A DNA stretch of 64,000 bases from NCBI GenBank assembly GCA_964016885.1, contig OZ024740.1:98828001-98892000 (forward strand), read 5' to 3'. The notes below the pieces were generated by a model. That model ran no database searches. It worked only from the letters and a program-made list of their open reading frames with translations, and was not told the DNA's origin. The first letter of the stretch is position 1. The number at the start of each line of letters is the position of its first letter. Source of the stretch: Eledone cirrhosa (taxonomy: Eukaryota). Positions 18,251 to 63,537 of the stretch are shown here, one piece after another. Position numbers and translations under genes: made by a program.

Positions 18251-21058
18251 GGAACAAGTATGAGCCTGACGGCAGAGCTGAAGCCGTTTAGAAGGCTAAT
18301 TCTGGACTAAATAAAATTGTTTAGCCTGGTAAATAAATAGCCGAACTTCTCAGGGGGTAATTCCGTATATGGGAAGATAGTAATTGTCAAAAGGATTGGT
18401 CAAAAATTTGTTGTAAAGACAGATGATTATATCATGGCATTTGGTGGGAGGTAGGGGTAGCTGAACTTGCAGGTAGAACAAAGAGGGAGTGGGGGAAACC
18501 CAGTAAGGCGTTGAAAGTGAAATCTATACAGCAGATTCTAAGGATAGTGAAAAGAATGTCGAGAAAAGTGTACTGGAGAAGGGATGGGGGGAGTTGAAAG
18601 AATAGGTAAATCGAAAGGGAGTAAACAAAAAAACGCATTATAAAAATAAGGAAATAAATATATAAAAAAAAAAAATTTCTGGTTACTACTCCATTTCCAC
18701 AATCCCCAAATCTCTCATTGGTATTTCTAAGCTATAGAAAAGTTTAATAGGTGGAGAAAAATACTAAATACGAGATTGTAGTGAAAGAATTTTATAAAGC
18801 TGGCTTTACTGGGGGTCTAACACCACTGCTATAGTTGGTTAGTAATCAGCCAATGCTATCTTACAATGACAGGTTAATAAGTTGAGAACAAAAATACTAA
18901 TACAAAATATTAATTCAGTGTACAATTACAGAAATACTAATACAAAAATACCACTAAGAAATTTAGAAACCACAGAAATGGAGCAGCAACCAGAAAGAAA
19001 ACAATTTACTGGGGTCTAACACATCTGCTATAAAAAGCGTAATCGGCCAATTCTATCTTAAAATTAGGGGGGTGGGGTACAGAGGCTACAGACGACCGAT
19101 GGACTGCATCGGGGTAGGCGAAAAAGTGGGAAAAAAAGACAAGGAAGCAGATCAGGGGTGGAAGGACTAGGAAGAGATGGGGGGAAGAAGGAAATATAGA
19201 GGAAAAGATAAAAAGGTTACATCTACCTTTGTAAGCGGGGGTTACCCCTTACAAAATCGGCAAGTGGGGTGTTTCAGCCCTTGTCTACCCCCCCCCCCCC
19301 GGGTCATTATGGGGTTTGAGGGCGAGGTAAGTCCTATGCAATCTGTGTTTGCATGCAGTTACCACTTCGTCTTTCTTGTTTAGGAGTTGGTCCTTCGAAA
19401 GCAGCATTTGTAATGTTTCCTCCGAGCATAAGTTACACGGACGGCGTCCTCCCGTGTAAGAGTTAGCTCTGTACAGTAAGCTCCAAGTGAGATTGTAGGT
19501 TATATTATTATCTTTGAGGTCCCAGGCGTGGCCCGAAAATGTAGTGGCATGACGCCGGGCCGGGTTTCGGAAAGTATGTCAGTGTAGGTAGAGCCGGGTC
19601 TTGAAGTCACAAGCGGTTAATCCTATATAAGCTTTGTTGGAGGTGTCCGTCCTCACGTTGCACTGGTAGATCACATTACGATCTCGGCATCTGTTGTTGA
19701 GGTGGCAAAGGGATCTATCAGGACAGTTAACCTCCTGGTCGGCTCACCACTGCTGTCTAGGTTATTTCTTCTATAGGGTTGAGTTTTTTGTTGTTAGAGG
19801 AGACGATGTTTTGTGCGAAGTTAGGTGTGGTGCTATAGGAGAGTTTGATGGTGTTTTTGTTGATTATGTTGTGGTAGCGGTGTTGTAGTGGGAAGTGTTT
19901 TTCGATGAGCCTAAAGAAGATTTTCCCGTTAGGTGTTGTCACCTCAGCATTGTGGGGAGGATTGAACCACGTTACGTTGCGTGAGCGGCGGTGTCGCCTG
20001 CTGGTTCCGCTAATGGAAGCTGGATAATAGGGTATTTCCTCCCGGAAGCCACTCCGCTTGAGGGCCTGGTTGTAATAAGGCGCATGTTCGTCAATATCTG
20101 CTCATTAGCGGGCAAACGAGATATGCGGAGGGAGATGTTTTTAACCAGGTTATTGGTGATGTTTCTAGGATGGTTTGACCGGTGTTGGGTGTAATGCAGG
20201 TTGTCGTTTGGTTTCCTGTATGGGTAGTACAGATCATTATCGAGGTTAAGGGTAACGTCCAGGAAGTTTACTCGGATTAGGGACGTTTGTAGGGTTATTT
20301 TAAATCCCCAGTCGCGGAAGAAGCTGATTAATCGTTTACGGACCCGGTCTGTACTACTGGGGTTGTGCCCTTTGAGGGCGAGGAGCCTATCATCACGGTA
20401 CAATCAACCGCCGAATGCAGGAAACATTTAAATAGTAGTAATAATTCTATAAGATCTATGACCTCAGCCGACTCCGTCGCGCCCTTACTGACGTCGAAGG
20501 AGGAGTCAGATCTCTTTATCTATTTGGAGTTGTCAAAAAGTAGGACTGTCTTCCTGGCGTGGAGGATGATATTTCTTTCCTGATCGGTGATGGGGTGAGT
20601 GTTTCGGCAAAGTCCAAGGCGGCCGTAAAGAGCGGTAAGGTAATTGATGCATAGTTGCTGCTCCATTACTGTGGTTTCTAAATTTCTTAGTGGTATTTTT
20701 GTATTAGTATTCTTGTATTAGTATTTCTATATTTGTATTCTGAATTAATATTTCGTATTAGTATTTTTGTCGTAGTATTTTACTATTTTTGTTCTCAACT
20801 TATTAACCTGTCATTGTAAGATAGCATTGGCTGATTACTAATTAACTATAGCAGTGGTGTTATAAAGCCGGCTTTATAAAATTATTTCACTATAATCTCG
20901 TAGTTAGTATTTTTCTCCACCTATTAAACATTTCTATAGCTTAGAAATACCAATGAGAGATTTGGTGATTGTGGAAATGGACTAGTAACCAGAAATTGTT
21001 TTTTTTATATATTTATTTCCTTATTTTTATAATGTCTTTTTTTGTTTATTCCCTTTCG
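18251..21058 (-). mobile_element. Nematis-type Penelope-like element (RT C-half + GIY-YIG endonuclease), 5'-truncated with inverted pseudo-LTR
   Basis: Minus strand 20650-19320 gives YRDD, VNFLDVTLNL, YRKPND..SNHP, WFNPP, KHFP..NTIKLSYS, NVIYQC..AYIGLT..FKTR, CNLC, LLNKKDE..CKH. 18612-18990 is inverted at 20654-21058. Confidence 0.9.
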
Positions 21059-21125
21059 TCTAGCTAACTCGTCTCATAGACTGAGTGTTCTGCCACTACG
21101 CATATTACCATCCAGTGTTCTACCC

Positions 21126-21209
21126 CCTCTCTCTCTCTCTCTCTCTCTCTCTCTCTCTCTCTCTCTATATATATATATATATATATATATATATATATAT
21201 ATATATATA
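21126..21209. repeat. (CT)n(TA)n microsatellite
   Basis: Direct reading. Confidence 0.95.
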
Positions 21210-21351
21210 AATAATAAAGAATTCATATCTAGTAACATATATATACATACAGATGCATATCAATGCTAGCAAATATATAGGTTTTGTCTTAATAACAGTG
21301 TGGTTCAATGCATGGGGTTGTAGAACAATAATATAAGAGACATGAGAATAG

Positions 21352-21434
21352 ACTTTCCTGACGACGGAATGCTTCTCAATATTATTCTTCAGAAAATATA
21401 TTTACTCCATTCCAGAAACTAATTAGTTGGAAGT
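21352..21434 (+). ncRNA. Type I hammerhead ribozyme motif (523-bp family, copy 1)
   Basis: ACTTTC-CTGACGA-C-GGAATG...CATTCC-A-GAAA-CTAATTAG-TT-GGAAGT. Confidence 0.8.
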
Positions 21435-21874
21435 GATGTTTTAGTAAGTAAGTTAATTTTATAATTTTCTTATTTTACGTCTCTTATATTATTGTTCAGC
21501 AACCCCATGCATTGAACCACACTGTTATTAAGACAAAACCTATATATTTGCTAGCATTGATATGCATTTGTATGTATATATATGTTACTAGATATGAATT
21601 CTTTATTATTATCTCCAAATTATTTGTCGAGCAATATTGGCCATGACTGCTGCTACGGTTGTAGGCAGGTCGCTGTCTTATTAGCAAACCACTTTCCACT
21701 GATTGACCTCGATGTCACGTGTTCGATTCTTTTTGAATTTGCCACAGACGTAGAGGCAGTGATTTTCTCAATGGCTTGGAATTCAGTCCACGCTTCGCTA
21801 TTTCCTATCCACTGAATTATTTTTTAATAAGTTTCCAGTGTCCTCGCTTTGCCTGGAAACTTACATGAGAATAG

Positions 21875-21957
21875 ACTTTCCTGACGACGGAATGCTTCTC
21901 GATATTATTCTTCGGAAAATATATTTACTCCATTCCAGAAACTAATTAGTTGGAAGT
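21875..21957 (+). ncRNA. Type I hammerhead ribozyme motif (523-bp family, copy 2)
   Basis: Same motif as copy 1; the two differences fall in the stem II loop region. Confidence 0.8.
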
Positions 21958-61666: not shown

Positions 61667-62031
61667 TTGTCAGTGTTGAACAAACGAGCAACGGTGGTTG
61701 CTAGACACTACGGCTTAATACGGGATGTTTGTTTACAAACACACCGAGCATTATAATAAATGTTCGGTGAATCCATACGTGCATATATATATGTGTGCAT
61801 GTATGTATATATATATATACATACTACTGTACGTCGGTATACATATATGTATGTACGTGTACATACTTATATTTAAGTAACAGCCGTACTAAGAGTGGGA
61901 AATGAAATATCGTTTCATTTTTTACGTTTATCGTTTTCGGTGCACCCGGCCGATTAACCCACTCGATATGCATATTGGGCTACTCAGCCGTTAATATGCA
62001 TAAGGTAAGTATATACGTTCAACAATCTGGC

Positions 62032-62088
62032 AGGAAGGTATACGTTGCTGACGATAGCTAACAAGCTTTAAACTAGTACAGCGTTCCT
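62032..62088 (+). ncRNA. Hammerhead motif, plus arm copy 3, core mutant (GAAA>TAAA)
   Basis: G>T at 62069 changes the invariant G12. Confidence 0.8.
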
Positions 62089-62455
62089 TTGTCAGTGTTG
62101 AACAAACGAGCAACGGTGGTTGCTAGACACTACGGCTTAATACGGGATGTTTGTTTACAAACACACCGAGCATTATAATAAATGTTCGGTGAATCCATAC
62201 GTGCATATATATATGTGTGCATGTATGTATATATATATATATACATACTACTGTACGTCGGTATACATATATGTATGTACGTGTACATACTTATATTTAA
62301 GTAACAGCCGTACTAAGAGTGGGAAATGAAATATCGTTTCATTTTTTCCGTTTATCGTTTTCGGTGCACCCGGCCGATTAACCCACTCGATATGCATATT
62401 GGGCTACTCAGCCGTTAATATGCATAAGGTAAGTATATACGTTCAACAATCTGGC

Positions 62456-62512
62456 AGGAAGGTATACGTTGCTGACGATAGCTAACAAGCTTGAAACTAG
62501 TACAGCGTTCCT
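62456..62512 (+). ncRNA. Type I hammerhead ribozyme (422-bp family), plus arm copy 4
   Basis: Identical motif. Confidence 0.9.
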
Positions 62513-62877
62513 TTGTCAGTGTTGAACAAACGAGCAACGGTGGTTGCTAGACACTACGGCTTAATACGGGATGTTTGTTTACAAACACACCGAGCATTAT
62601 AATAAATGTTCGGTGAATCCATACGTGCATATATATATGTGTGCATGTATGTATATATATATATACATACTACTGTACGTCGGTATACATATATGTATGT
62701 ACGTGTACATACTTATATTTAAGTAACAGCCGTACTAAGAGTGGGAAATGAAATATCGTTTCATTTTTTCCGTTTATCGTTTTCGGTGCACCCGGCCGAT
62801 TAACCCACTCGATATGCATATTGGGCTACTCAGCCGTTAATATGCATAAGGTAAGTATATACGTTCAACAATCTGGC

Positions 62878-62934
62878 AGGAAGGTATACGTTGCTGACGA
62901 TAGCTAACAAGCTTGAAACTAGTACAGCGTTCCT
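62878..62934 (+). ncRNA. Type I hammerhead ribozyme (422-bp family), plus arm copy 5
   Basis: Identical motif. Confidence 0.9.
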
Positions 62935-63537
62935 TTGTCAGTGTTGAACAAACGAGCAACGGTGGTTGCTAGACACTACGGCTTAATACGGGATGTTTGT
63001 TTACAAACACACCGAGCATTATAATAAATGTTCGGTGAATCCATACGTGCATATATATATGTGTGCATGTATGTATATATATATATACATACTACTGTAC
63101 GTCGGTATACATATATGTATGTACGTGTACATACTTATATTTAAGTAACAGCCGTACTAAGAGTGGGAAATGAAATATCGTTTCATTTTTTCCGTTTATA
63201 TATATATATATATATATATATATGTGTGTGTAAGTATGGGTTATATCCAACATTAATAATAATGTTCGATTTATTCGTAAACAAATGACCCGATTTGAAG
63301 CCGAGTGGCACAGCTTCAAATCGGGTCATTTGTTTACGAATGAATCAAACATTATTATTAATGTTCGATATAACCCATACGTACATATATATATCTATAT
63401 ATGTGTGTGTATGTATATATATATATATACATATGTGTGTATATATATTTGTGTGTACGTGTGCATACTTACATTTATGTATCAGCTGTGCTAGGGCGAG
63501 AAATAAAATTGTAATTTTATATAAGTATCTATATATA

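Follow-up and report, generated by a model that had tools for sequence, protein, structure and literature searches.

The window, a 64-kb stretch of contig OZ024740.1 from Eledone cirrhosa, carries a series of insertions into (AT)n microsatellites that consist of two inverted arms with outward-pointing 3' ends (Table 1). Some derive from Penelope-like elements (PLEs) of Hydra type, here called PLE-A and PLE-D, and others from the non-coding 422, 469 and 523 families, whose tandem units each bear a hammerhead ribozyme. Throughout the genome, the three hammerhead families form two-arm (AT)n insertions with fixed ends, one arm nearly always stopping at a site A and the other at a site B. Both the PLE and the hammerhead-repeat insertions were probably made by two-strand target-primed reverse transcription, with one end per site.

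Table 1. Features of the window, and the intact-looking PLE-D reading frame located elsewhere in the genome (ORF, open reading frame; RT, reverse transcriptase; UTR, untranslated region; LINE, long interspersed nuclear element).
Feature	Position	Strand	Remarks
PLE-A long arm	18251..20653	-	5'-truncated, frameshifted Hydra-type RT-endonuclease remnant (~19327-20618) and 3' UTR
PLE-A inverted short arm	20654..21058	+	2-nt overlap at centre 20653/4
523-family arm	21210..21341	-	Ends at site B, unit position 182 counted from the ribozyme cut
523-family arm, 1.3 units	21340..22012	+	Ends at site A (61); hammerhead cores 21358-21428, 21881-21951
469-family arm, 1.3 units	50326..50937	-	Ends at site A (227); hammerhead core 50583-50553
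469-family arm	50943..51275	+	Ends at site B (299); centre carries a 5-nt insertion
PLE-D short inverted arm	51485..51604	-	Ends at site A
PLE-D long arm	51605..53518	+	Hydra-type PLE endonuclease-region remnant, 3' UTR, A-to-B tail 53383-53518; ends at site B
Element E, left-arm outer part of older 422-related element	59051..59160	-	
422-family array, 4.7 units	59186..61172	-	Ends at site A (216); five hammerhead cores
422-family array, 4.8 units	61171..63199	+	Ends at site B (275); scan finds four intact hammerhead cores
Element F, remainder of older 422-related palindrome	63224..63537		Strand not assigned
Long imperfect (AT)n target	47736..50325		
Other (AT)n flanks	21166-21209, 22013-22089, 51276-51484, 53519-55173, 58935-59050, 59160-59185, 63200-63223		
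LINE tail-to-tail pairs	43381-43776/43779-43975 and 44187-44722/45337-45905		Second surrounds an (AT)n
Intact-looking 785-aa Hydra-type PLE ORF	C3:359148064-359150418 (L335 3065-5419)		

Self-comparison and repeat finding were used to delimit the inverted structures. A preliminary description of the window had proposed six, one of them (18251-21058) only in part, in which both outer 3' ends run into (AT)n while the arms stop at different positions in the unit, and four are as described. At 18251-21058 the left end is proper, lying at PLE-A site A against a short (AT)n, but the right arm halts at 21058 against an unrelated repeat, ~360 nt short of site A, and was likely cut at a later time. The outermost structure (59051-63537, elements E and F) is not a pair with two different ends: its arms are 91% alike, both outer ends lie at the same B-like site, and a few flank letters are in common. 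The 422 array is lodged within the AT-rich block of this older element. The ~2-nt microhomology claimed for the centres is present in the 422, 523 and PLE-A pairs and extends to 3 nt in PLE-D (51604/5), but is replaced by an insertion in the 469 pair. The 422 and 469 units and elements E/F share homology, and the two places where 422 arms stop are homologous to those where 469 arms stop.

Type I hammerhead cores with their stems were detected by motif scan in the units of all three families (15 matches in the window vs 0-1 in each of 20 shuffles), and stems I and II carry compensatory changes among relatives. Judged by sequence, the three units qualify as non-LTR (long terminal repeat) retrozymes, being tandem and non-coding with one type I hammerhead each, dispersed in many copies, and ranging from monomers to multimers. 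No hammerhead appears among the 150 listed of 353 Rfam matches in the window, where AT-repeat miRNA models dominate, nor in focused Rfam scans.

Two fixed end sites in hammerhead repeats

The 3.0-Gb genome was searched with each unit, and the best 40 candidates of each search, out of 257, 479 and 2710 at first look, were examined. Arms of at least 60 nt lying away from the edge (n = 209) were mapped onto each unit, with numbering from the ribozyme cut. (AT)n abuts the 3' end of 166 of the 209 arms, and 160 of these 166 ends fall within 5 nt of just two sites per family, A/B at 216/275 (422), 227/299 (469) and 61/181 (523). Since each unit contains 20 (422), 11 (469) or 24 (523) WTAT sites, the ends are not circularly permuted.

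This result bears directly on the preliminary description, which held that both (AT)n strands prime at any UUAU-like site of a circular RNA and predicted permuted ends enriched at WTAT. Five of the six main sites do have TAT as their last letters and keep phase with (AT)n over 3-5 nt, and arms of up to ~20 units with variants often fixed across both arms would suit a circular RNA. However, only two WTAT sites are used of the 11-24 per unit, ends seldom fall in the longest AT-phase runs (14 nt in 422, 9 nt in 523), although ends inside such runs are hard to call, and site A of the 469 family overlaps (AT)n by only 1-2 nt. PLE-D, moreover, shows this mirror design too, and its terminal repeat yielded no canonical hammerhead. 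As a whole this account is very improbable, and end choice at any UUAU-like site is refuted.

The pairing of ends is equally constrained. Head-to-head pairs outnumber tail-to-tail pairs by 84 to 2, far above chance, which agrees with the scarcity of tail-to-tail inversions foreseen in the preliminary description; the random orientation that would have spoken against it is not seen. Among the 84 are 61 A+B pairs, no A+A and no B+B (p 4e-19 if ends are independent). Three of the others overran the fetched DNA; when extended, two prove to be A+B, giving 63 of 63 at-site pairs, and the third ends in an N gap. (AT)n lies at both outer ends in 55 of the 61 A+B pairs, also as foreseen. The 422 family, near-identical genome-wide, looks recently active.

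Sampling anchored on junctions gives a similar picture. Exact 422-pattern junctions number 447 for site B and 1409 for site A. Of 30 B-anchored loci, 13 are resolvable, with the opposite end at A in 12 and B-like in one; 22 of 30 A-anchored loci are resolvable, with the opposite end at B in 16, at A in one and elsewhere in five. The two samples share a few loci.

Two further tandem families were encountered. The 591-nt family (L103 889-2178, C1:315949000) forms arrays of up to ~7 units in the A/B mirror design, and 12 of 12 two-ended insertions are A+B (23 loci examined). It was considered as a ribozyme-free array control and rejected, since inspection by eye shows a hammerhead-like core with U3/A8 replacing C3/G8. 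The 310-nt hammerhead family (L112 1-1370, L153 3004-5001) forms mirror arrays of up to ~15 units with a tail of 26-33 nt, and both of its two-ended insertions are A+B. At L054 (224-1100) an array passes from a 422-like unit of ~486 nt to one resembling 469, perhaps because the template switched from one family to the other. Whole mirror insertions are tandemly repeated together with their flanks at C1:19617704-19625401 (L234-L236, L264-L266) and at L373, which reflects later segmental duplication or assembly duplication.

Hydra-type Penelope-like elements with the same design

The signature extends to autonomous PLEs, as the preliminary description had supposed. The insertion at 51485-53518 belongs to the PLE-D family, some copies of which bear the 785-aa ORF of Table 1. 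Among 20 loci picked by their endonuclease, all 11 two-ended copies are A+B, and the arm that bears the ORF stops at A in some and at B in others. The single ORF contains RWK, DKT and CxCx5C motifs and joins an RT to a C-terminal GIY-YIG-type endonuclease; it has no CCHH motif. Its predicted structure (pLDDT, the predicted local distance difference test, 84.7) finds its top fold matches in telomerase RTs. A Pfam search of the ORF matched no family, and none of 42 homologues is a named reference protein, the lone named homologue being a partial match in Octopus sinensis. PLE-D and the PLE-A remnants show the Hydra-clade insertion traits ((TA)n target, pseudo-LTR (pLTR), inverted copy and tail), and both are assigned to that clade by motifs rather than by tree. 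A search with the endonuclease region returned 51,117 first-look candidates, which suggests a very large Hydra load in this genome.

In some PLE insertions the two arms are not nested. In PLE-D L189 and L191 and PLE-A L204 and L210, the A arm extends further 5' and only the B arm carries the tail; therefore neither arm was copied from the other. The PLE-D tail lies ~45 nt upstream of the ATG. The A-B region was also considered as the start of the ORF and rejected, as full copies place it upstream of the ATG. Five PLE-A pairs are A+B, one is A+A and one B+B; the last two have matching flanks on both sides, which suggests later inverted duplication.

Motif scans find no canonical hammerhead in the terminal repeats of PLE-D or PLE-A, a search that variant cores would escape, and PLE-D makes tandems without a canonical ribozyme (L326). 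A hammerhead was found in other Hydra-like families nearby. At 17920-18238 of the window, another element (hammerhead core at 18040-18084) has its end facing the same short (AT)n as PLE-A; this element likely has an A/B pair of its own, and its L143 copy stops ~95 nt earlier.

Other repeats in the window follow different designs. At 43381-45905, LINE 3' ends bearing (GAT)n tails form two tail-to-tail pairs, which we take to be RTE-like and whose polarity is the reverse of the PLE design. Degenerate endonuclease-RT LINE copies with (GAT)n tails, 68% alike, occupy 55436-58650 and 3572-6082, and a LINE 3' part recurs as a 1.2-kb direct repeat (90% identical) at 4838-6082 and 46518-47743. Small near-perfect palindromes of 40-52 nt lie at 9240-9321 and 25180-25231.

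Junctions, template and proposed mechanism

Target duplications are visible where the target is imperfect. They occur in 11 of 21 informative pairs, compared with a mean of 2.0 and a maximum of 5 in 2000 shuffles; nine fit a length of ~10-13 bp and two a length of 20-26 bp. One 469 copy in non-(AT)n DNA has a duplication of 11-14 bp. Together with the arm polarity, these duplications are what nicks leaving 3' overhangs, each priming a cDNA, would be expected to produce, and the proposal of priming from both target strands, made in the preliminary description, is supported. The 'TTAT-like' overlap claimed there is found at most sites, which share 3-5 nt with (AT)n, but not at site A of the 469 family, where it is 1-2 nt and ends scatter over positions 224-231. 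Pairing thus seems to tune the start and not to choose it. The tail, or A-B interval, measures 26-165 nt across families.

The centres, by contrast with the fixed outer ends, are random. Inner ends are uniform around the unit (Kolmogorov-Smirnov p 0.34) and unrelated to the ribozyme cut (2 of 122 near it), and the lengths of the two arms are uncorrelated (rho 0.02). Of 64 centres, 25 overlap by at least 2 nt, 11 overlap by 1 nt, four are blunt and 24 contain insertions. Overlaps of at least 2 nt thus make up 25 of 40 insertion-free centres, compared with 19% expected (p 1e-9). Several of the insertions copy nearby letters, as happens in polymerase-theta end joining.

These observations can be assembled into a mechanism, which is probably correct in outline. 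A PLE protein, perhaps as a dimer, would nick the two (AT)n strands at points separated by ~10-13 bp. Of the two 3' ends thus freed, one would prime cDNA synthesis at RNA site A and its partner at site B, which lies 26-165 nt further downstream, and the interval between these sites would be the known PLE 'tail'. The sites would be fixed by the RNA-protein complex, with pairing of 1-5 nt merely tuning the exact base. Both cDNAs would likely be copied off the same RNA to independent lengths, and their ends would be joined by microhomology-mediated end joining, leaving the arms head to head and the target duplicated. Hammerhead repeats would use the PLE machinery in trans, and some multi-unit arms would have expanded locally afterwards.

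Self-priming offers a different origin for the inverted arms. A strand would snap back and copy itself, as proposed for PLEs (PMC3846280, in the sections available), and an endonuclease would resolve the hairpin (PMC8557442, likewise in part), here at A or B. Head-to-head polarity and variants shared by the arms are accounted for; a few centres are symmetric, and same-site exceptions with matching flanks may be explained this way. However, only 4 of 61 pairs have inner ends separated by 20 nt or less, with 5.3 expected, and neither arm is contained in the other in the four non-tandem PLE insertions described above. Snap-back is improbable.

L1 twin priming is another known route to inverted segments. 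There, the first primer works from the poly(A) end, the position of the second site varies, and the segments abut at a microhomology joint. The E. cirrhosa insertions resemble it in that a second target strand would prime on the same RNA, an inverted 5' segment results and the joint shows microhomology. They differ in that neither site varies, both are internal, and the arms overlap by up to many units. The L1-type explanation drawn on in the preliminary description is not supported: the B arm's inner end comes within 15 nt of site A in just 3 of 61 pairs, and overlap between the arms is unrestricted.

Inverted arms with fixed ends and target duplications could also denote a foldback DNA transposon or a miniature inverted-repeat transposable element (MITE), or else a long-read assembly artefact, and one tail-to-tail joint is indeed an N gap. 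The preliminary description had named fixed termini with duplications as the mark of a MITE; both are present, but the two ends of a copy differ (A vs B) and swap sides, and the centres are random. The units moreover carry hammerheads with compensatory stem changes, and RT-coding copies share the pattern. Against an artefact, joints between opposite strands and 32 loose site-A ends continuing into (AT)n occur in contigs from a public run of the best-matching organism, possibly the sample behind the assembly itself. None of these explanations is more than barely credible. The 422 unit also occurs in data from three other organisms at a contig depth of ~3-130 vs 10^5-10^6 in the best match; carry-over is possible, and these data are not used as evidence.

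Variants within arrays inform the nature of the template. Nineteen are fixed across every unit of both arms (13 of them confined to one insertion), 187 are single-copy and 25 are present in subsets of units. Four 422 insertions, one spanning 21 plus 7 units, carry a rarer AT-block length of 44 or 46 nt in both arms. Both arms exceed one unit in 29 of 61 pairs, and arms reach ~20 units. Homogeneous private variants in a near-identical family suit a monomer circle, and on sequence grounds the balance tips slightly towards a circular monomer as the template for multi-unit arms. A multimeric transcript is the alternative source, and a homogeneous parent array read through would give a similar variant pattern. 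Some array length arose later, because subset variants occur and an older 469 array contains two-unit local duplications.

Priming on two separate RNAs, held asymmetrically with one at A and one at B, would leave neither RT needing to displace the other's cDNA. Independent arm lengths and the differing arm variants of one 422 insertion (C1:392885868) are in its favor, but the four other 422 insertions share their block variant between arms, and the 13 private variants are fixed in both, which two RNAs off one source locus would also fit. This arrangement is unlikely, and a single RNA copied from both strands is preferred.

Several observations weigh against the single-RNA, two-strand mechanism. 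The two arms of C1:392885868 differ in template variant, and the 25 subset variants and the local duplications in the 469 array point to later growth of some arrays. At least one end is off-site in 20 of the 84 head-to-head pairs, 43 of the 209 arms lack abutting (AT)n, and 10 of the 21 informative pairs lack a target duplication. Same-site pairs are found in the anchored 422 samples (one A+A and one B+B-like, beside the five ends elsewhere), in E/F and locus L404 (both B+B) and in PLE-A (A+A and B+B). The samples are skewed to young, long copies, with a further 60, 20 and 19 matches to the three units lying outside them. Rfam does not match the 422 hammerhead even at an E-value of 10. Among the loci examined, none of the autonomous PLEs has a terminal repeat with homology to the 422, 469 or 523 unit, and the search for a partner yielded only neighbours in the same (AT)n; the host-parasite link therefore rests on the shared insertion signature. 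In an in vitro assay of the Anolis Poseidon PLE, the start site is alike on both strands and lacks homology to the cut DNA (PMC11167929, as far as its available text goes).

A candidate start signal follows some of the ends. All ends running into (AT)n in the DNA examined were scanned (38 end groups), with downstream sequence read from read-through copies. The motif RCTC...GAGY follows soon after the end in 11 of 38 groups, compared with a background of 1.6% and 0.5 groups expected in shuffles; as the groups are related, they are not independent. Among them are the two PLE-A sites, site A of PLE-D, both sites of a further Hydra-like family and 523 site B, where the hairpin motif is shared with PLE families. 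The motif is absent from 422, 469 and 523 site A. A tentative joint reading, which may well prove wrong, is that PLE integration is obligately two-primer, that a dimer gives each nicked strand one RNA start signal, and that the RTs chase each other round a circle. The signal would often be a U-rich stretch with an RCTC...GAGY hairpin 4-14 nt later, and a single event on circular retrozyme RNA would write mirror arrays of up to 20 turns.

Relation to known systems

Inverted arms, the tail, (TA)n targeting and the PLE-retrozyme link are already published. The available sections of PMC3846280 describe, for endonuclease PLEs, inverted pLTRs, a tail on one member of the inverted pair, and target-site duplications of 8-10 bp. 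Those of PMC8557442 present the tandem and inverted structure and the microsatellite bias of PLEs as unexplained, and describe a Hydra clade that inserts into (TA)n and carries RWK, DKT and CxCx5C. Endonuclease PLEs thus share with the E. cirrhosa insertions a 5'-truncated head-to-head inverted copy, a tail on one of two inverted repeats, and tandems (PMC3846280; PMC8557442). They differ in their known tail of 30-40 nt, compared with 26-165 nt here, and in the near-strict rule of one arm per site, the non-nested arms and the placing of the PLE-D tail upstream of the ATG found here.

The Poseidon enzyme cleaves AT-rich DNA, nicks and extends both strands, uses two internal RNA starts that bound the tail, and is a predicted dimer (PMC11167929, in its accessible part). 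The insertions described here, in contrast, pair one site with each strand and mostly overlap (AT)n by 3-5 nt. Metazoan non-LTR retrozymes are low in GC and consist of tandem units a few hundred nt long, each with a single type I hammerhead and no ORF, and they have been proposed as PLE passengers via circular RNA (PMC7229834; bioRxiv 10.64898/2026.07.22.740005; both available in part). The available text of these sources describes head-to-tail arrays of 170-400 nt RNAs and contains no description of mirror arrays, paired ends or (AT)n targeting. Neither the one-site-per-arm rule nor mirror retrozyme arrays were found in a literature search that left supplements and some papers outside its range.

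The origin of tandem and inverted PLE insertions and of their one-sided tail is a named open problem (PMC8557442, in the sections available), and the route of retrozyme integration in animals is unresolved in the literature. The one-site-per-arm rule, target duplications, random centres and non-nested arms speak against both self-priming and twin priming of the L1 type, and precise predictions follow from them for the in vitro PLE system already in use. That one enzyme complex likely copies the same RNA from both cut strands addresses a hard-to-pin step of Penelope mobility. If PLE integration were obligately two-primer, it would be a general integration mechanism separate from LINE target-primed reverse transcription. 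The earlier case for mobilization of retrozymes by a PLE protein was built on co-occurrence and pLTR similarity; the shared signature adds evidence at the level of the insertion itself. The 422 family, finally, inserts long palindromes into microsatellites, with consequences for the stability of the genome and for its assembly.

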